From a virus, in the IMG/VR virus record IMGVR_UViG_3300045988_010396, positions 37,395 to 101,394 of that record: a stretch of 64,000 nucleotides of DNA. One strand, given 5' to 3'. The notes under the pieces are model-generated. The model saw only the letters and a list, made by a program, of their open reading frames with translations, had not been told where the DNA came from and made no database searches. Shown here piece after piece: positions 4,010 through 38,747 of the stretch (the stretch's first letter is position 1; each line of letters begins with the position of its first letter). The position numbers and the translations under genes were made by a program.

Positions 4010-4095
4010 ACTCCCTTAGCTCAGTTGGTTCCGCAAGGCTTGAGAGCATCGGACTTTTAATCCGAGGGTCATGGGTTCGAGTCCCATAGGGAGTA
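4010..4095 (+). tRNA. tRNA-Lys(UUU) with a 12-nt insertion in the D-loop
   Basis: Acceptor ACTCCCT/AGGGAGT 7 bp; D-stem GCTC/GAGC; anticodon stem TCGGA/TCCGA with loop CTTTTAA; T-arm ATGGG-TTCGAGT-CCCAT. The extra CCGCAAGGCTTG lies between the D-loop GGTT and the 3' D-stem. Confidence 0.7.
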
Positions 4096-4112
4096 CTATT
4101 CATTTCATTCAA

Positions 4113-4432
4113 GGGGCTGTATTTGGTCTTGACTGGTGGCTACTTGGTATGAGGACATGCAGAGACTGATGGAGAGACATCAAAACTTTAGGTGGCAACA
4201 GAATTTCTGCACCTGTAGCTCTTGCTGCTTAAGCAATCTACTGAGTTAGTCACTGACTTGGAAACAGAATAGTGACAAGACAAGATTTCTTGCATAGATA
4301 AATGCAAGTGGTGGACTATGTTGACAATCCAGTCAACCCCAGCAGAGAACCAACTGCATAATAAAGTGGTAAGCATGTGTAATCCTTATATTGAGAGCTA
4401 TTAGGACAGGGGTTCGACTCCCCTCAGCTCCA
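4113..4432 (+). ncRNA. ssrA: tmRNA (SsrA); tag ORF ...GGNRISAPVALAA*
   Basis: 5' end GGGGCTGTATTTGGTCTTGACTGG against E. coli GGGGCTGATTCTGGATTCGACGGG. 3' end GGACAGGGGTTCGACTCCCCTCAGCTCCA against GGACGCGGGTTCAACTCCCGCCAGCTCCA. Includes the G3:U wobble alanine identity pair. Internal reading frame ggc aac aga att tct gca cct gta gct ctt gct gct taa. Confidence 0.8.
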
Positions 4433-4508
4433 GAGGCACGTTGTTAGATACTTCCACGTAGTGTGCCTTGGGTTAAAAGCTAGATTCTAACAAAAAAAAA
4501 AAGATTAT

Positions 4509-4811
4509 ATGTTAATAACAGAAAGAGCAAAAAGGAAAATAAATACTTTATTAGATAGTACTAATGATTGTATAAACTATCCTAAAACTAATAAAGATGG
4601 TTATGGGGATATTCAAGAGATTGTGGAGGGTAAAAAGCTCCACATGTTAGCTCATAGAGTATCTTATCAGTTATATACAGGAGAAGACATATCACCTGAT
4701 GATATAATATGTCATAGATGTGATAATCCTGCTTGTATTAATCCTAGACATTTGTTCAGAGGCACTCACTCAGATAATATTAAAGATAAGGTTTGTACCC
4801 ATTATTCATAA
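4509..4811 (+). CDS. HNH homing endonuclease
   Basis: Motif [14 protein letters not shown] and downstream HSDN (HNH fold). Confidence 0.7.
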
Positions 4812-5107
4812 GCGGTCGTAGCATAATTAGCGGTGACGCGGTAGTGGAATCCAATTACGACTATATTGTTTTCAAGAACTGGTGGTCATCAGGAAGATAC
4901 TTTACATGGACTAGAAGCAATGATATGTGGTGTGTTGGATGCTTCTACGGCACGGGCAAGGAGCTAATCGCTAAAGCCTACAAGGACAGCAAGGTGAGTG
5001 GTAGAGAGTATGAGAGAATAGTCAAATATGTAGAGCGGATTAAGAGAGACAGCAAGCCATCTTTGTGGCGGAGAATACTGTTTAATCTTAGCAAGCTCTG
5101 CAAATAG
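4793..5107 (+). CDS. Hypothetical protein, 104 aa
   Basis: ORF overlapping the HNH gene end; may be its C-terminal extension in another frame. Confidence 0.3.
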
Positions 5108-5129
5108 TATAAAATTAAACTACATCAGA

Positions 5130-5411
5130 ATGGCAAAGATTGTAAACAATGACAAGGGGTTCAAGGTAATCAGCTTGTCAACAGAGGATGCAGCATCTCT
5201 GGGCTTTGGTATAGATGGCTCAGGTACATGTATATGTATGCATTGTAATAAGGGGTGCCGTAGTGGAGACATCTATTACATTGCAGTGCTTCATGACACT
5301 ATGTGCAAGAAGTGCTATGAGAGGTGGATTAAGTCTGCTACAAGGTATGCAGAAGATATACCCATTGAAAATAGGAACTTCAACCACTATAAGGAGTGGC
5401 TGTGTCTGTGA
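5130..5411 (+). CDS. Cys-rich small protein (zinc-ribbon-like)
   Basis: CICMHCNKGC ... CKKCYERW cysteine pairs. Confidence 0.4.
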   Translation: MAKIVNNDKGFKVISLSTEDAASLGFGIDGSGTCICMHCNKGCRSGDIYYIAVLHDTMCKKCYERWIKSATRYAEDIPIENRNFNHYKEWLCL

Positions 5412-5611: not shown

Positions 5612-7035
5612 ATGTGTTCAAAAGTTAATCCTAACCTAAAGCCTGTACCTAAGTTTGAAAACACTCAACTGGCAGGTGGTTATGGTGCATTAGCTGCCAG
5701 GCAGTCCAATGTAGCATTGCTTAGAAGAGCAGTGCTGGCTAATCTCCTTTGAGAGGATGTAGCATATATGGATGGTGAGAGAGTAGCCAATGAAATACAG
5801 AGGTTAATACCTCTGTGCCCTGCTGAGGATGTATATAATATAGCTCTTGAAGCTAGGTTAATGCAGAAACTGAGGCATACTCCATTGTTTATAGCAGTGG
5901 AAATGTGCAAGTATCCTGAACATAAGTTATTTGTTAAGGACTTGCTACCAAAGATAGTTACAAGAGCTGATATGCTCACTGACTTCTTGGCTATATATAT
6001 ATATATTGGAAGGATGGCAAGCATCCTATCTGTAACCAAGCTAAGAAGGGTCTTGCTCTAGCCTTCCACAACTTCAATGAGTATAAGTTGGCTAAGTATG
6101 ACAGAGATGCTGCTATCAAGCTCAGGGATGTGATGTTCTTGGTACATGCAAAGCCTAGAAACCAGTATGAGCAGGAGTTGTTCAATAAGGTAGCTGAGAG
6201 AACTCTCACACCACCTGAGACATGGGAAGTCATGTTAAGTAGAGGTGATGACAAGAAGGCTACTTGGACTAAGCTCATTACAGAGGGTAAGATTGGAGGT
6301 CTGGCTATGTTGAGAAACATAGCTAATATGCAGAAGGCCAATGTGGATAGAAGGACTATCCAAGATGGCCTTAAGACACTGAGAAGCTCAATGCTATTAC
6401 CTCTTGACTTCTGGAAGGCTGCTAGAATGAACCCAGCATTTGAGAGAGACATTGAGGATGCTATGATAGAGGCATATAAGAACTTACCTAAACTTCCTGG
6501 CAAGACACTATTTATAGTGGATGTATCAGGTTCTATGGGTTTTTTAACCTCTGGTAGCTCTCAGTTCAACAGGATGGACCAAGCTTGTGCTATGGCTATC
6601 TTGGCAGCTAATCAGTGTGAGGACTATGAGCTTGTAGCTACAGCAGGTAATGATGATTCTAAAATAAGTGCCTCAGAGTGGATTGAATATCCAAAGAGAG
6701 GTTTTGCTCTTGCTCCACAGATAATGGATACCAGGCATAGGATTAGTGGTGGAGGTATATTCACCAGGCAGTGCCTAGAGTGGTGTAAGGATAAGTTCAA
6801 AGACAAGAAGTTTGATAGAATTATCATATTCTCAGACTCTCAAGACTGTGACTATCCTGAGAAGAGAGTACCTAAACCATTTGGTACATATAACTATATT
6901 GTAGATGTATCTGCTCATACAAGAGGAGTGAACTACAAGGGTGTATGGACTGCTGAGGTTTCAGGCTGGTCAGAACATTTCTTGACTTATATTGCAGCTC
7001 TTGAGGGATTGCAGAATAAGTTTGAGGAGCAATAA
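5612..7035 (+). pseudogene. rsr: Ro60/Rsr-like protein (TROVE domain plus vWA), interrupted by an in-frame TGA at 5750-5752 and a frameshift at the TA tract 5992-6006
   Basis: N-terminus VNPNLKPVPKFENTQLAGGYG resembles human Ro60 VNQMQPLNEKQIANSQDGY. Other TROVE matches: HTPLFIAVEMC to QEPMLFALAIC; KLRDVMFLVHAKP to KDLLRLSHLKP; GGLAMLRNIANMQKA to MPLTALLRNLGKMTA. The vWA MIDAS motif is FIVDVSGSM. The track ORF 6088 starts at TTG; homology continues upstream to the TA tract. Confidence 0.65.
5992..6006. repeat. (TA)7T dinucleotide tract inside the rsr-like gene
   Basis: tatatatatatatat. Loss of one TA unit fuses the frame-2 ORF 5768-6061 with the frame-1 ORF ending at 7035. Confidence 0.8.
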
Positions 7036-7733: not shown

Positions 7734-7861
7734 GGGGGAGTAGCTAAATTGGTTACTATACTCTTGCTGTTATTCTCTGGAAGCAGTAGTGTTAGCAAAG
7801 AGTTACTTCAAGCATTCATCTGGTAAATGAAAGTATATTGGTTCGAGTCCAATCTCCCCCG
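7734..7861 (+). tRNA. tRNA-Thr(GGU) gene carrying a 56-nt intervening sequence (about 7755-7810) in the D-loop before the 3' D-stem
   Basis: Acceptor GGGGGAG/CTCCCCC. The D-stem 5' GCTA and D-loop AATTGGTT are separated from the 3' D-stem AGC(A) by the insert. Anticodon arm TTCAT-CTGGTAA-ATGAA; T-arm ATTGG-TTCGAGT-CCAAT. Confidence 0.65.
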
Positions 7862-13121: not shown

Positions 13122-13718
13122 ATGACAATAAGCATAAATGAGTCTGTTTGTAAGAAGAATAAGTTGAGCTTGGCAGAGCTTCTATCTATTCTCCTTATTA
13201 AGACTGGTGCTGACATACCTAAGTTATTCAAAAGTCTTGAAGAGAAGGAAATCATAGTCAAGGATGTATTTGGTGGTTATATGATAACTCAGAGATGGGA
13301 TGATGTAGCCTCCACTATACTCCTTGATTCTGACAAGGACAGTCAGCCATCAGAGAGACTTGAGAACTTAGCTGTACAACTGGCTGAAATATTCCCCAAA
13401 GGGAAAAAGGCAGGCACTTGCCATTATTTCAGAGGTAATAAGAAAGATACTATACTCCGATTGAAGAAGTTTTTCAAGAGGTATGGTAATAAGTTCACAG
13501 ATGAACAGATACTAGAGGCTGCTAGAAGCTATGTAGCTTCCTTCAATGGTAACTATCACTATATGAGAGTATTGAAGTACTTTATATGGAAAGATGCCAA
13601 GAAGGAGGATGCAGATGGTAATCTGTATGTGGATGAAACATCTGACTTAGCGACCCTGATTGAAAATGCAGGTGCTATTGATTCCATTAAAGAGGATTGG
13701 ACTACTAGCTTGAATTGA
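13122..13718 (+). CDS. Hypothetical protein, 198 aa
   Basis: ORF only. Confidence 0.4.
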   Translation: MTISINESVCKKNKLSLAELLSILLIKTGADIPKLFKSLEEKEIIVKDVFGGYMITQRWDDVASTILLDSDKDSQPSERLENLAVQLAEIFPKGKKAGTCHYFRGNKKDTILRLKKFFKRYGNKFTDEQILEAARSYVASFNGNYHYMRVLKYFIWKDAKKEDADGNLYVDETSDLATLIENAGAIDSIKEDWTTSLN

Positions 13719-13719
13719 T

Positions 13720-14943
13720 ATGGATGTATTTGACAGGTCAATAGAGAAGCTCAAAGTCAGGAGACAAAGGATATTGGATGGGCAGATTAACTGTATTCCA
13801 TTGCCTTTCCCTAGATTGAGAACCTGGTTGCCAGGTATTGAGAAAAGAAGATATACTATAGTTACTGCAAACCAGAAGATAGGTAAGTCAAAGCTAAGTG
13901 ACTATCTGTATGTCTATGAGCCTTTCTTCTATATGATAGAACATCCTGACCAATTAAGGTTCAAGGTGCTTTACTTCACTCTTGAAATGGGAAAGGAAGA
14001 GAAGTTCTATGAGTTTCTCTGCCACCTGTTATATAGGTTGGATAACATAAGGATAAGTCCTACCAACCTTAAGAGTACAAATGCTGACAATCCTTGTCCT
14101 GAGCATATACTTGAACTCATTGAGAGTGAGAGGTATCAGGAGTATATAAGGAAGTTCAAGGAGACTGTCATCTATATAGATGATATAAGGAATCCTACTG
14201 GTATCTATAAGAGAATCAGGGGGTTTATGCTTGAGAGAGGTCAGTTCCACTACAAGAAAGGTACTATTAAGGATGAGAATGGCCTTCCTATGGAGGTAGA
14301 TGTCATTGATTACTTTGAGCACACTGATGAAGATGAGTATATAGAGGTAATCCTTGATAACTATTCCAATCTTATGCAAGAGCAAGGTATGGATAAGAGA
14401 GCTACCATTGAGAAGATGAGTAAGTATGCCATTGAACTCAGGGATAAGTTTGATATTCATTTCTGTGCTATCCAGCATCAGGCTCAAGCTCAGGAAGGTA
14501 TTGAGAATCAAAAGCTCAATAAGCTATATCCATCATCAGATGGTTTGGCTGACTGTAAGACCACCACTAGAGATGCCAATCTGGTATTAGGTCTGTTCAG
14601 TCCGTTCAAGTATGGACTTACAGAATATGAGAAGTACGACATAACCAGATTCAAGAACAACATCAGGTTCTTGATAGTCATTGAAGATAGGGACAATGGT
14701 GCTGGTGGCCAGGTATGCCCACTACTCTTTGATGGTGAGGTAAGTAACTTCTGTGAATTACCTCTTCCTGACAATAAGAGGGAGATTGAGTCAGCACTAC
14801 AGTATGTAGAGCAAGTCATAAGAAAGAGGGCTACTCTAGTATTTATGATGTTCACAAGAGAGTTCTCAAGAGAAAAAAGAAAAGTAGTTAAAGGCTTGCA
14901 CAGATGGTTCAATAGAAGTATCTTTGCAAGCAGAAACAAGTAA
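13720..14943 (+). CDS. DnaB-family (RecA-fold) replicative helicase domain protein
   Basis: NCIPLPFPRLRTWLPGIEKRRYTIVTANQKIGKS resembles the DnaB GlpTGfxxLD...iiAaRPsmGKT region. Contains Walker A and a DANLVLGL motif. Confidence 0.55.
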   Translation: MDVFDRSIEKLKVRRQRILDGQINCIPLPFPRLRTWLPGIEKRRYTIVTANQKIGKSKLSDYLYVYEPFFYMIEHPDQLRFKVLYFTLEMGKEEKFYEFLCHLLYRLDNIRISPTNLKSTNADNPCPEHILELIESERYQEYIRKFKETVIYIDDIRNPTGIYKRIRGFMLERGQFHYKKGTIKDENGLPMEVDVIDYFEHTDEDEYIEVILDNYSNLMQEQGMDKRATIEKMSKYAIELRDKFDIHFCAIQHQAQAQEGIENQKLNKLYPSSDGLADCKTTTRDANLVLGLFSPFKYGLTEYEKYDITRFKNNIRFLIVIEDRDNGAGGQVCPLLFDGEVSNFCELPLPDNKREIESALQYVEQVIRKRATLVFMMFTREFSREKRKVVKGLHRWFNRSIFASRNK

Positions 14944-14949
14944 AAGCAA

Positions 14950-15480
14950 ATGGCAAAAGCATTGATTTTAGCTAAGACTGGGTTTGGTAAATCCAGTTCA
15001 CTGGTTGGTGTACCCTCTGCTGGTATATTAGGCTTGGACCCTAAGGAGACTTATCTCCTTAGCTGTGTTAATAAGCCTCTGCCTATCAAGGGTGCATCTA
15101 AGATTTATGTGCCTATACCTATGCAGGGTATTACTCCTGCTAACTTAGGTTCAGTCATAGGTAAGGGCAACAGGATTATCACCAAGGATGCCAAGATTGT
15201 AGCTGCTGCTATAGAGTTGCTAATCAATTCACCCTTCAAGAACATAGTAGTTGATGATATGAACTATCTATCGCAGGACTACTATATGAAGAATGCCATG
15301 AAAGGTGGTTGGGACACTCCTAAGCAGATAGGTTACAATATGGGTCTTATCTTTGACCAGATTGACAATGTGCCTGAGGATAAGAACATTATCTGTATGG
15401 CTCACTTTGAGACCTACAAGGATAAGAATGGTGACTCCATCTCTTACAAGTACAAATCAACTGGTAACATGGTAGCATAA
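14950..15480 (+). CDS. AAA_24/Sak4-like P-loop ATPase (possibly exon 1 of an intron-split gene)
   Basis: N-terminal Walker A LAKTGFGKSS; Walker B NIVVDD. Confidence 0.45.
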   Translation: MAKALILAKTGFGKSSSLVGVPSAGILGLDPKETYLLSCVNKPLPIKGASKIYVPIPMQGITPANLGSVIGKGNRIITKDAKIVAAAIELLINSPFKNIVVDDMNYLSQDYYMKNAMKGGWDTPKQIGYNMGLIFDQIDNVPEDKNIICMAHFETYKDKNGDSISYKYKSTGNMVA

Positions 15481-15690
15481 CATCTGCCATTATCTATCTA
15501 ATTGCTGGAACACCCTAAAGACAACTGAACTACAAAGTAATTGGTAACAATAAGCTTGAATGTTTGAAAATCAGTTGTATTCTTAGTGATGGAGAAATGG
15601 GCAATCAGCAGCCAAGGGACTCTACGAGTTCAAGGTTCATCGACTATCCCCTGTTGTGGGGGAGTACATTTATAAAGTAATCAATTATAT

Positions 15691-16305
15691 TTGGAAATGG
15701 TAGACAATAGAGAAGTACACATTTATGCATTAAGACATCCTGATACCTTAGAAATAAGGTATGTCGGTAAAACAGTGAGAAAATTAAGTAGAAGGTTAGG
15801 GAATCATATTGCAAATGCTAAAGGTAACCAGCACAATAAGCATTTAAGTAATTGGATTCTTAATATCTTGAAGGAAAATAAGAAACCTGTAATAGAACTC
15901 TTGGAAACTTGTCAAAGTAATAACTGGCAAGAAAGAGAGCAATATTGGATTTCTCAATTTCCTAATCTGATAAATCTCACTGCTGGAGGAGATGGATGTG
16001 TAGGTTTTATTCATGATTCTAAAGCTATAGAAAAGATTAGACAATCTAAATTTGGTACTAAACATTCTGTAGAATTTAAGGAAGCTATGAGTAAAAGGCT
16101 TAAAGGTGTGCCTCTTAGTGAAGAACATAAAAGTAAAATAGGTTTAGCTAATAAGGGAAGGAAGGCTTCGGAAACTGCAAGAAAGAGGCTATCAGAATCC
16201 CACAAAGGTATTACTCAGAGTGAGGAATCCAAAAGAAAAAGAAGTGAATCTATTAAACTTTGGTGGACTAAGAGAAAGTCTATTGAAGATATAGTCAAAT
16301 CTTAA
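15691..16305 (+). CDS. GIY-YIG homing endonuclease with NUMOD-like repeats
   Basis: IYALRHPDTLEIRYVGKT...R..NH; repeated EEHKSKIG/SESHKG units as in I-TevI-type HEGs. Confidence 0.75.
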   Translation: MEMVDNREVHIYALRHPDTLEIRYVGKTVRKLSRRLGNHIANAKGNQHNKHLSNWILNILKENKKPVIELLETCQSNNWQEREQYWISQFPNLINLTAGGDGCVGFIHDSKAIEKIRQSKFGTKHSVEFKEAMSKRLKGVPLSEEHKSKIGLANKGRKASETARKRLSESHKGITQSEESKRKRSESIKLWWTKRKSIEDIVKS

Positions 16306-38327: not shown

Positions 38328-38747
38328 ATGCCAAAGATAATTTTATGTAGAGGTATTCAAGGTAGTGGTAAGACTACATGGGCTAAACAATGGGTACTTG
38401 AAGACCCAGAACATAGAGTAAGATTTAACAATGATGATATCAGAAATATGTTAGGTAAGTATTGGGTACCTAGTAGAGAGCCTATAGTTACAATTATGAA
38501 AAACAGCTTTATACAAGGGGCTGCTATTTTCCATCATGACGTTGTAATAGACAATATGAATCTTAATAGTACAGAAGTTGAGTACTGGAAAAGGACAGCC
38601 AAGGTGTTTAATTATGACCTTGAAATCAAGAATTTCTTTACTCCTCTTCAAGAGTGTATAGATAGAGATTCTAAGAGACCTAATCCTATAGGGGAAAAGG
38701 TTATAAGAAATACGTATGAAAGGTATAAAGATATTCTTGAAGCATAA
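38328..38747 (+). CDS. pnk: Polynucleotide 5'-kinase (T4 Pnk kinase-domain-like, stand-alone)
   Basis: MPKIILCRGIQGSGKTTWAKQW...NNDDIRNM...VVIDNMNLN aligns to T4 Pnk [22 protein letters not shown]...NRDDYRQS...VIISDTNLN. Confidence 0.65.
   Translation: MPKIILCRGIQGSGKTTWAKQWVLEDPEHRVRFNNDDIRNMLGKYWVPSREPIVTIMKNSFIQGAAIFHHDVVIDNMNLNSTEVEYWKRTAKVFNYDLEIKNFFTPLQECIDRDSKRPNPIGEKVIRNTYERYKDILEA

Follow-up and report, generated by a model that had tools for sequence, protein, structure and literature searches.

A one-piece tmRNA gene with a hairpin at the PK1 position in a phage assigned to the crAss-like gut phages

Phages have been known to encode tmRNAs for two decades. In the human gut, crAss-like phages rank among the most abundant viruses. 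To our knowledge, the takeover of Bacteroides translation by crAss-like phages is poorly understood. Complete ssrA genes have been found in lytic-type phages of unrelated lineages (Streptomyces phages, Enterococcus phages, Melnitz-like marine myophages and huge phages), usually beside tRNAs, and each of these RNAs resembles the tmRNA of its own host phylum. The role proposed for them is the maintenance of translation. Streptomyces phages have the annotated tag ANSNFALAA. Some of the huge phages that carry tmRNA also encode SmpB (PMC7162821), and the tmRNA of Melnitz is two-piece and riboswitch-linked (PMC9004378). The original prediction for the locus described here called tmRNA genes uncommon in phages, which agrees with their presence in 402 of 18,146 phage genomes (2.3%, PMC9004378) and in 7 of 788 viral genomes from the gut (PMC12291355).

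Here we describe a tmRNA gene in a 64-kb stretch of viral DNA (the window), which covers about two thirds of a ~100-kb genome. Like the genes of the phages above, it is complete and lies beside a tRNA. It differs from the Melnitz gene in being one-piece, and our search of the 64-kb window revealed no SmpB, whereas some huge phages have one. BLAST of the gene against 50,697 phage records also matched the annotated tmRNAs of Streptomyces and Enterococcus phages. Our literature search found no paper describing a tmRNA in crAss-like phages and returned only software mentions. Since phage tmRNAs have long been known and one GenBank record already annotates a member of this family, the general picture is unaltered.

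The window phage and its tmRNA gene

The window was assigned by its sequence to a crAss-like gut phage of the Steigviridae. Its large ORFs match crAss structural proteins, a family A DNA polymerase, NrdD, helicases and a portal-vertex auxiliary protein, and one structural protein is 69% identical to its counterpart in Bacteroides phage crAss001. The best nucleotide match among GenBank phages was IAS virus (88.6% over 12% of a 20-kb query), and the window genome itself was absent from the GenBank phage collection. The GC skew reverses near 52 kb, where the large ORFs turn from the plus to the minus strand.

Two detectors concurred on the tmRNA. ARAGORN called a one-piece tmRNA with exact ends at 4113..4432 (+), and the Rfam covariance model RF00023 matched 4113..4435 over its full length (model positions 1-374) and scored 83.1 bits where the gathering threshold is 47 (E 9.6e-31), far above chance. 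A two-piece (permuted) tmRNA was rejected, for RF04321 gave only 24.0 and 19.2 bits against a gathering threshold of 47. The original prediction of a phage tmRNA whose tag ends in ALAA was therefore borne out, and the gene is full-length and one-piece: the covariance model scores the region, and a tRNA-like domain fold was found in it. The features of the locus are as follows.

4010..4096, + strand: tRNA with anticodon loop CUUUUAA (Lys, UUU), 16 nt upstream of the tmRNA; Rfam tRNA model, 66.3 bits
4113..4432, + strand: complete one-piece tmRNA (ssrA), 320 nt; ARAGORN and RF00023
4113..4119, + strand: 5' strand of the acceptor stem, GGGGCUG, forming 7 bp with CAGCUCC at 4425..4431
4120..4133, + strand: D-loop analogue UAUUUGGUCUUGAC; Rfam alignment and homolog alignments
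4134..4160, + strand: 5' strand of helix 2, in three segments (H2a 4134..4141, H2b 4144..4155, H2c 4156..4160)
4167..4182, + strand: hairpin UGAUG-GAGAGA-CAUCA at the PK1 position; one A:U pair becomes U:A in 7 sequences
4194..4232, + strand: tag frame GGC…UAA, 12 codons reading GNRISAPVALAA; resume codon GGC 4194..4196, stop codon 4230..4232
4222..4236, + strand: helix 5, UUGC/GCAA, whose loop contains the stop codon
4243..4276, + strand: pseudoknot after the tag, labelled PK2 here, with the invariant loop GAAACAGAA
4289..4308, + strand: hairpin A, CUUGCAU/AUGCAAG with loop AGAUAA; four compensatory pairs
4312..4337, + strand: pseudoknot labelled PK3 here; stem 1 4312..4315/4328..4331, stem 2 4320..4325/4332..4337
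4342..4370, + strand: pseudoknot labelled PK4 here; stem 1 4342..4345/4354..4357, stem 2 4349..4352/4367..4370
4396..4403, 4383..4394 and 4373..4377, + strand: helix 2 partners of H2a, H2b and H2c
4408..4424, + strand: canonical T-arm with stem AGGGG/CCCCU and loop UUCGACU, 98% paired

G3:U70 is the alanine identity pair. In the window tmRNA, G3 (4115) faces U (4429) in the acceptor stem, and the discriminator A is 4432. Together with the acceptor stem and a GGUUCRANUCC-type T-loop, and with no anticodon arm, these make up the tRNA-like domain. The two ends noted originally, GGGGCTGTATTTGGTCTTGAC at 4113..4133 and GGACAGGGGTTCGACTCCCCTCAGCTCCA at 4404..4432, were found in place, as was the G3:U pair. 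This pair is present in 34 of 35 distinct homologs, and acceptor pairs 6 and 7 change in a compensatory manner. The outer two pairs of the T-stem occur in four standard combinations among homologs (AG/CU, AA/UU, UU/AA and GA/UC). CCA is not encoded, the next bases being GAG; an encoded CCA is also missing from the Bacteroides chromosomal tmRNA genes that were retrieved. The C at 4128 (tmRNA position 16) occurs only in the window copy, and all other homologs and the Rfam consensus have U there.

The internal frame noted originally, ending in SAPVALAA-TAA, is present and reads GGC AAC AGA ATT TCT GCA CCT GTA GCT CTT GCT GCT TAA. ARAGORN itself reported a different tag, ASGGLC* (4304..4324; tmRNA positions 192-212), which we consider a miscall. 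Four observations show that the frame at 4194..4232 is the correct one. The consensus resume codon of the Rfam alignment falls on GGC 4194..4196. The resume context UUUAGGU|GGC AAC has UA at -5/-4 (4189..4190) and an A-rich +2 codon (AAC), both among the known features that set the frame (PMC4236655). In the sister subfamily of homologs, ARAGORN selects a site aligned with the 4194 frame (DNTYRVAA*). The ASGGLC* ORF overlies the 3' strand of the covarying hairpin A and two pseudoknot strands. In addition, the spacer between the PK1-position hairpin and the resume codon is 11 nt, equal to the Rfam consensus, and the tag has a hydrophobic C-terminus that ends in AA.

Homologs and conservation of the folded RNA

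BLAST found full-length homologs in phage cr106_1 and in Kehishuvirus 'tikkala', and a partial one in cr128_1. Pattern scans found homologs in 20 IMG/VR contigs and 32 human-gut metagenome contigs, mostly ~100-kb assemblies; the first metagenome scan, with a pattern in the PK1 region, returned zero loci, and a second pattern gave the 32. About 50 homologs were found in all, in ~100-kb crAss-like contigs and GenBank phages. The nearest relative, L010, differs from the window at 2 of 320 positions and scores 95.8 bits with the Rfam model, so that the window copy lies 12.7 bits lower. Among scorable homologs, all but one (tikkala) have an acceptor stem of 7/7 pairs, G3:U70 and a T-stem of 5/5 pairs.

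The cr106_1 tmRNA (MT774378 / NC_055871; Steigviridae, Mahstovirus) is 73-75% identical to that of the window over 99% of its length, and its GenBank record already annotates a 'transfer-messenger RNA, SsrA'. It shares with the window the PK1-position hairpin, the downstream pseudoknots, G3:U and the T-arm. However, its tag is DNTYRVAA (8 codons, resume codon GAC), in contrast to the 12 codons and GGC of the window; its acceptor strand is GGGGCAU rather than GGGGCUG, and several helices differ in a compensatory manner. For the subfamily of the window we found no close match among GenBank phages; it occurred only in IMG/VR and ENA gut contigs. The sequences thus place the window tmRNA in a distinct subfamily with its own tag, within an already annotated phage tmRNA family. 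Four tag types were found among the homologs: GNRISAPVALAA in the window and 10 others, DNTYRVAA in 36, GNTYRAAA in 2 and GNTSYRVAA in 1. The tags of 8, 9 and 12 codons differ by in-frame indels, and every type ends in AA with the stop codon in helix 5.

Kehishuvirus 'tikkala', cultured on Bacteroides cellulosilyticus, is the only cultured phage in which a homolog was found. Its copy has G3:C, 4/7 acceptor pairs and 2/5 T-stem pairs, and fails the Rfam model; it looks like a decaying copy. This suggests that, in laboratory culture at least, the phage can do without the gene. No tmRNA gene occurs in crAss001 or in most of the cultured relatives.

Some relatives carry a group I intron in the T-loop, whose excision restores a perfect T-arm and acceptor stem. 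A T-loop that is split by an intron and restored by its removal fits a gene obliged to stay functional.

A full secondary structure was written on the window sequence and tested on two MAFFT alignments, one of 16 distinct sequences and the other of 35. A standard pair was formed in 96.1% of cells with 16 sequences and in 95.1% with 35, against 33-46% in controls with slid partners. Pairs changed on both sides numbered 19 and 20, respectively, against 2-6 in the slid controls. Column shuffles were scored by the cells paired, the pairs and cells changed on both sides, and a covariation score; 0 of 500 equalled the observed values in each alignment. Compensatory support was found for the acceptor, the three segments of helix 2, the PK1-position hairpin, hairpin A, PK3 stem 2, PK4 stem 1 and the T-stem. 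This pattern of compensatory pairing indicates that the tmRNA has been selected as a folded RNA and is not a relic, and that structural selection has been strong across the phage family.

Helix 2 comprises 25 pairs, 6 of them with compensatory change, and 99-100% of its cells are paired. The outer three pairs of helix 5 are 100% paired with one-sided variation, and its innermost pair is peculiar to the window subfamily. Downstream of the tag there are three H-type pseudoknots and one extra hairpin. In PK2, stem 2 (4249..4253/4272..4276) is 100% paired; stem 1 (4243..4248/4254..4259) is less clear in the alignment, where an indel affects gap placement. Read directly, the sister subfamily forms AAGCA/UGCUU and GCAC/GUGC here, and U:A replaces G:C in cr128_1. 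Hairpin A of cr128_1 is CUCUAUU/AAUAGAG. PK3 has 98-100% of cells paired, with two compensatory pairs in stem 2 and one-sided variation in stem 1. PK4 stem 1 is 100% paired, and two of its four pairs show compensatory change, in 8 and in 11 sequences. PK4 stem 2 is paired in ~80% of cells, a value limited by gap placement, and the sister subfamily forms an equivalent stem when read directly. Outside these stems, positions 50 and 62 covary as G,G or A,A, possibly through a tertiary contact.

Bacteroidota features and the PK1 position

To compare the phage RNA with bacterial ones, one genome per species from 185,579 bacterial and archaeal species was scanned for CAAAACTTTANNTGGC, a gap of 12-42 nt and GCNGCNTAA, a pattern drawn from the phage sequence and the Bacteroides sequence. 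The CAAAACUUUANNUGGC…GCNGCNUAA signature occurred at 41 loci, 31 of which carry an ARAGORN tmRNA, almost all in Bacteroidota. Matches include Bacteroides faecis, B. xylanisolvens and B. reticulotermitis. The Bacteroidota matches encode the tag GETNYALAA or GENNYALAA in RNAs of ~395 nt.

Three features mark the window tmRNA as Bacteroidota-type: it resumes at GGC, it has the CAAAACUUUA..UGGC context, and its ALAA-stop block is identical. Bacteroides and phage tmRNAs are both one-piece, resume at GGC and do not encode CCA; they share the upstream block AUCAAAACUUUA..UGGC and the GG.UUUGAC D-loop analogue, and the ALAA-stop block GCUCUUGCUGCUUAA is identical. In contrast, the phage RNA is 75 nt shorter (320 against ~395 nt), and its tag body is GNRISAPV- where Bacteroides has GETNY- or GENNY-, three residues shorter. 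The comparison of tags with candidate hosts that the original prediction proposed thus gave an identical ALAA-stop and a different body. The bacterial host it proposed is in keeping both with these signatures and with the crAss-like assignment of the window, whose relatives infect Bacteroides. With nhmmer against the 31 Bacteroidota tmRNAs, no bacterial donor emerged: the scores were at most 33 bits (Chryseobacterium) and ~14 bits for Bacteroides. At ~14 bits against Bacteroides ssrA, no recent donor can be named, and the origin of the phage tmRNA appears from these comparisons to be Bacteroidota-type but old. The single strong nhmmer match (L056, 99.7 bits) lies on a crAss-like contig binned in a 'Clostridium' MAG and was rejected as a bacterial donor.

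PK1 is typical of the tmRNA family and is the pseudoknot classically needed for tagging. Throughout the crAss-like tmRNA family, PK1 is reduced to a hairpin, in the window a plain one of 5 bp with a 6-nt purine loop. Bacteroides has a true PK1, with a stem GUGG/CCAC in three species and the compensatory GUGC/GCAC in a fourth. The phage hairpin is homologous to one Bacteroides PK1 stem; in the phage RNA the other stem has no partner, since a 15-nt gap takes the place of its 3' strand. A residual pseudoknot was rejected, as the 5' flank, like the loop, consists of purines only and offers no complement. An alternative stem, which would join positions 61-64 to 74-77, can form in the window subfamily; it is broken in the cr106_1 subfamily and was therefore rejected as well. 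A check for PK1-PK4 had been suggested with the original prediction. Equivalents of PK2-PK4 were found; PK1 failed as a pseudoknot, only its UGAUG/CAUCA stem being present.

As summarised in review passages (PMC3968760; PMC4236655), E. coli tmRNA in which PK1 was swapped for a hairpin still tags proteins (constructs of Tanner et al. 2006). These constructs and the phage RNA alike have a single stable hairpin at the PK1 site at a normal distance from the resume codon. The E. coli RNA is an engineered laboratory construct, whereas the phage reduction is natural, family-wide and known here from sequence. The phage tmRNA may therefore offer a natural example that dispenses with PK1 and that allows a direct comparison with the RNA of the host.

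Gene neighbourhood, proposed function and alternatives

An ORF, the tRNA and the tmRNA follow one another in one orientation, separated by 8 and 16 nt. The tRNA-Lys(UUU)-like gene has a 14-nt D-loop insertion and is called 'tRNA-???' by ARAGORN; the pair of tRNA-Lys and tmRNA recurs in L004 and L010. The short gaps on one strand make co-transcription and tRNA-type processing likely, and the upstream tRNA is probably co-transcribed with the tmRNA. A scan for sigma-70 promoters and intrinsic terminators around the tmRNA gave nothing relevant. The Bacteroides -7 motif TAnnTTTG gave a few regular-expression matches upstream (3340, 3397 and 3803), which are indistinguishable from chance.

Pfam families were searched with 64 of the 70 window ORFs of at least 60 aa, the six largest being left out. 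Neither SmpB nor an integrase is among the 25 families listed of the 30 matched. As the window thus yielded no SmpB, that of the host is presumably used, although a phage gene for it may lie in the remaining third of the genome. The neighbourhood of the tmRNA is rich in RNA-related functions, which would fit a role in coping with RNA damage or host shutoff, in line with the ribosome rescue during shutoff or counter-defence that the original prediction suggested as possible roles.

Several other genes and RNAs were observed around the tmRNA. A Ro60/TROVE gene, split into two ORFs in the window genome, has an adjacent covarying tRNA-like RNA, a candidate Y-like RNA. Further tRNAs lie nearby, and a polynucleotide-kinase-like ORF lies further along. 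Both cr106_1 and the window have tRNA(s) directly upstream of the tmRNA and a TROVE-domain gene 1.7-2.3 kb downstream.

We consider it probable that the locus encodes a functional one-piece phage tmRNA of Bacteroidota ancestry. Expression, charging, use of host SmpB, tagging and a benefit for the phage are proposed as follows. The tmRNA would be transcribed from the plus strand jointly with the tRNA 16 nt upstream, and host enzymes would trim it and add CCA. The host alanyl-tRNA synthetase would load alanine via G3:U70. The charged RNA would bind host SmpB and EF-Tu and enter ribosomes that have stalled on mRNAs which are broken or lack a stop codon. Such a ribosome would then move to the internal frame at GGC, append Ala-GNRISAPVALAA and stop at UAA. 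In this way the ribosome would be released, and the unfinished protein would be marked by its C-terminal LAA for the host proteases that recognise this ending. The phage may benefit because ribosomes would be kept available late in infection, possibly when expression of host ssrA is switched off or when mRNAs and tRNAs are being cleaved by host nucleases. If the tmRNA does depend on host SmpB, a subset of crAss-like phages would invest in ribosome rescue. Points against function are the unique U16C, the 12.7 bits by which the window copy falls below L010, the PK1 that is not a pseudoknot, and the dependence on compatibility with host SmpB.

The first two of these points would also be expected if the gene family were functional and the window copy had recently been inactivated and no longer supported trans-translation. 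The substitution is at an otherwise invariant D-loop position, the lower Rfam score (83.1 against 95.8 bits) is set against a near-identical relative, the TROVE gene nearby is split in two ORFs, and tikkala gives a precedent for decay. However, the helices, G3:U, T-arm, resume context and tag frame of the window copy are all intact, and it has just the 2 differences from L010 in 320 positions. We know of no single D-loop substitution that inactivates a tmRNA, and we regard recent inactivation as unlikely. The reduced PK1 and the tag body, which is unlike that of Bacteroides and three residues longer, could instead point to an RNA that is chiefly a decoy or modulator, titrating SmpB, AlaRS or EF-Tu or swapping the host tag for a phage tag. 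Since no phage SmpB was found in the window, such an RNA and the host tmRNA must be competitors for SmpB. On the other hand, a pure decoy has no need for a conserved, in-frame, stop-terminated tag with a correct resume context, and the C-terminal ALAA, identical to the host's down to the codons, implies the same proteolytic fate. This role seems quite improbable to us.

Two further explanations concern the DNA rather than the RNA. tmRNA genes are often integration sites, and ssrA fragments are frequent in phages (PMC9004378). The last 8 nt, CAGCUCCA, are common to phage and Bacteroides ssrA, as would be expected of host ssrA DNA acquired as, or used as, an attP site. However, the phage has a full-length gene and not a 3' fragment, ~5 of its last 29 nt differ from Bacteroides ssrA, and it scores only ~14 bits against it with nhmmer. 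No integrase is among the Pfam families listed for the window ORFs, and compensatory evolution has taken place within a family of ~100-kb crAss-like genomes. An attP origin is thus highly improbable and effectively already refuted. The chance that the region codes for protein is negligible. There is a 62-aa ORF on the minus strand (4188..4376), and the tikkala record OQ198717 annotates two small hypothetical CDS over the homolog; yet the variation follows RNA helices and not codons, the covariance model match has an E of 1e-30, and the covariation already refutes a coding region.

A broader role for the functional tmRNA that we favour is conceivable, although we hold it to be doubtful: the tmRNA might be part of a conserved RNA-damage-tolerance island in a crAss-like subgroup, sustaining translation under nuclease attack in Bacteroides. 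Such an island might consist of tRNA-Lys(UUU), the PK1-less tmRNA, TROVE with its Y-RNA-like transcript, tRNAs and the polynucleotide-kinase-like protein. The reduced, longer-tagged tmRNA would then be adapted to host SmpB when nucleases cut tRNAs and mRNAs.

For annotation, our results showed that at least one GenBank record labels a homolog of this tmRNA as hypothetical proteins, and that annotation based on ARAGORN mis-tags or misses tmRNAs of crAss-like phages, with three loci uncalled and two wrongly tagged.

Length classes and covariation in the tmRNA family

Our comparison showed that the tmRNA family falls into length classes of about 301, 307, 316, 320, 335, 385, 403 and 444 nt, and the tmRNA of the window is one of the compact forms. 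The length classes come from differing structured insertions between the pseudoknot PK2 and hairpin A, which were found in the homologous loci L006, L007, L015, L059, L060, L063, L064, L066, L073 and others. Members of the 335-nt class have even hairpin A replaced. The site is as follows.

Window about 4282..4284 (between tmRNA positions about 170 and 172): insertion site for the length differences among relatives

A second kind of variation was detected at tmRNA positions 50 and 62 (window 4162 and 4174). These positions covaried perfectly, being G,G in 21 sequences and A,A in 14, and the exception was one partial copy (L070). Their mutual information reached 0.97 bit, whereas the next column gave 0.44, and G,G and A,A were each observed inside the same length classes. 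The two positions represent the same G within two copies of an AGAGAC motif; the first copy precedes the PK1-position hairpin on its 5' side, and the second is located in the hairpin loop. The two positions do not form a Watson-Crick pair. Linkage could explain the covariation, and so could a homopurine tertiary contact or a binding site that occurs twice.

The sole cultured phage having a homolog is Kehishuvirus 'tikkala' (L011, OQ198717), whose copy at 5001..5303 is decayed. It exhibited G3:C, an acceptor stem of 4/7 and a T-stem of 2/5, and the Rfam search of this homolog gave no match. Two hypothetical proteins are annotated over it in GenBank OQ198717; both are probably spurious.

Group I introns and homing endonucleases

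In three relatives, the T-loop of the tmRNA gene was split by a group I intron (Rfam 86 bits).

L012 (crAss-like phage cr128_1), 3001..4317: intron-split tmRNA
L056 (CALEBD010000052.1): intron-split tmRNA
L064 (homologous locus), 13157..14362: intron-split tmRNA

The intron is inserted between GGGUU and CGA.UCCC, is about 870 nt long and contains an ORF on the opposite strand. When the exons were joined, a perfect T-arm and acceptor stem were obtained again. The intron is present in two different tag subfamilies, and therefore it is probably mobile.

The window itself contains the following elements.

4509..4811 (+): HNH_3 endonuclease ORF (Pfam E 4.8e-07)
15380..15761 (+): group I intron (Rfam 51 bits, versus a gathering score of 50)
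15691..16305 (+): GIY-YIG/NUMOD3 homing-endonuclease ORF

The HNH_3 ORF lies immediately 3' of the tmRNA and is possibly a free-standing homing endonuclease. The group I intron overlaps the start of the GIY-YIG/NUMOD3 ORF.

tRNAs, a Ro60/TROVE gene and other RNA-related functions

The following features were identified on both sides of the tmRNA.

4010..4096 (+): tRNA with anticodon loop CUUUUAA (Lys, UUU), Rfam 66.3 bits
5768..6061 and 6088..7035 (+): Ro60/TROVE-vWA gene in two ORFs, matching the TROVE protein of the uncultured crAss-like phage cr106_1
7188..7321 (+): tRNA-like RNA of 134 nt, Rfam tRNA 43.4 bits
7452..7525 (+): tRNA-Pro(UGG) called by ARAGORN, just 26.5 bits with the Rfam tRNA model
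7793..7853 (+): weak tRNA-like match, 27.9 bits, slightly below the gathering score of 29

The upstream tRNA is separated from the tmRNA by 16 nt, and the same tRNA gene precedes the tmRNA in L010, the locus nearest to the window in tmRNA sequence, and in the homologous locus L004. In cr106_1, the equivalent site is occupied by an 88-nt 'tRNA-Ile'. The end pair of the window tRNA is A1:U72, and its D-loop carries a 14-nt insertion, UCCGCAAGGCUUGA, which possibly forms a CC-GCAA-GG mini-hairpin. Despite its Rfam score, ARAGORN labeled this tRNA 'tRNA-???' and gave no identity.

The two TROVE ORFs aligned to residues 53-134 (5768..6061, 72% identity) and residues 158-473 (6088..7035, 69% identity) of the cr106_1 protein. 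That protein is a single 473-aa chain, whereas its counterpart in the window is split; a frameshift could be the cause, or the gene could be a pseudogene or wrongly assembled in this genome. Directly 3' of this gene, the 134-nt RNA retains an intact acceptor stem, D-arm and T-arm, with about 74 nt in place of the anticodon arm. With homologs from four related phages, its consensus fold showed compensatory changes in 16 of the 30 pairs, together with a conserved single-stranded UUACUUCAA. This RNA is a candidate for a YrlA-like Y-RNA that partners the TROVE protein; alternatively, it may be an intron-containing tRNA. The two weaker matches further downstream may be divergent phage tRNAs.

One window ORF was matched by a HicA-toxin-like family, and a polynucleotide-kinase-like ORF lies further along the window.

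38328..38747 (+): polynucleotide-kinase-like ORF (phrog_505 E 5.8e-31; Pfam AAA_33)

In the related phages (IAS virus), an RNA ligase and an 'mRNAse' are annotated nearby. Taken together, these matches and annotations give a hint that RNA repair or RNA cleavage is encoded in other parts of the genome.

Annotation and binning of the tmRNA loci

ARAGORN made no tmRNA call on the homologous loci L004, L006 and L007, though Rfam gave 89-91 bits there, and the tag that it assigned was wrong for the tmRNAs of the window and L010. These three misses and two wrong tags indicate that pipelines using ARAGORN only will under-annotate the crAss-like tmRNA family. Two contigs of public MAGs also look mis-binned: L056, with its crAss-like phage tmRNA and intron, was assigned to a 'Clostridium sp.' bin, whereas L028 (CAVGYO010000040.1), from an 'Erysipelotrichaceae' bin, contains a tmRNA of Bacteroides type (GETNYALAA).
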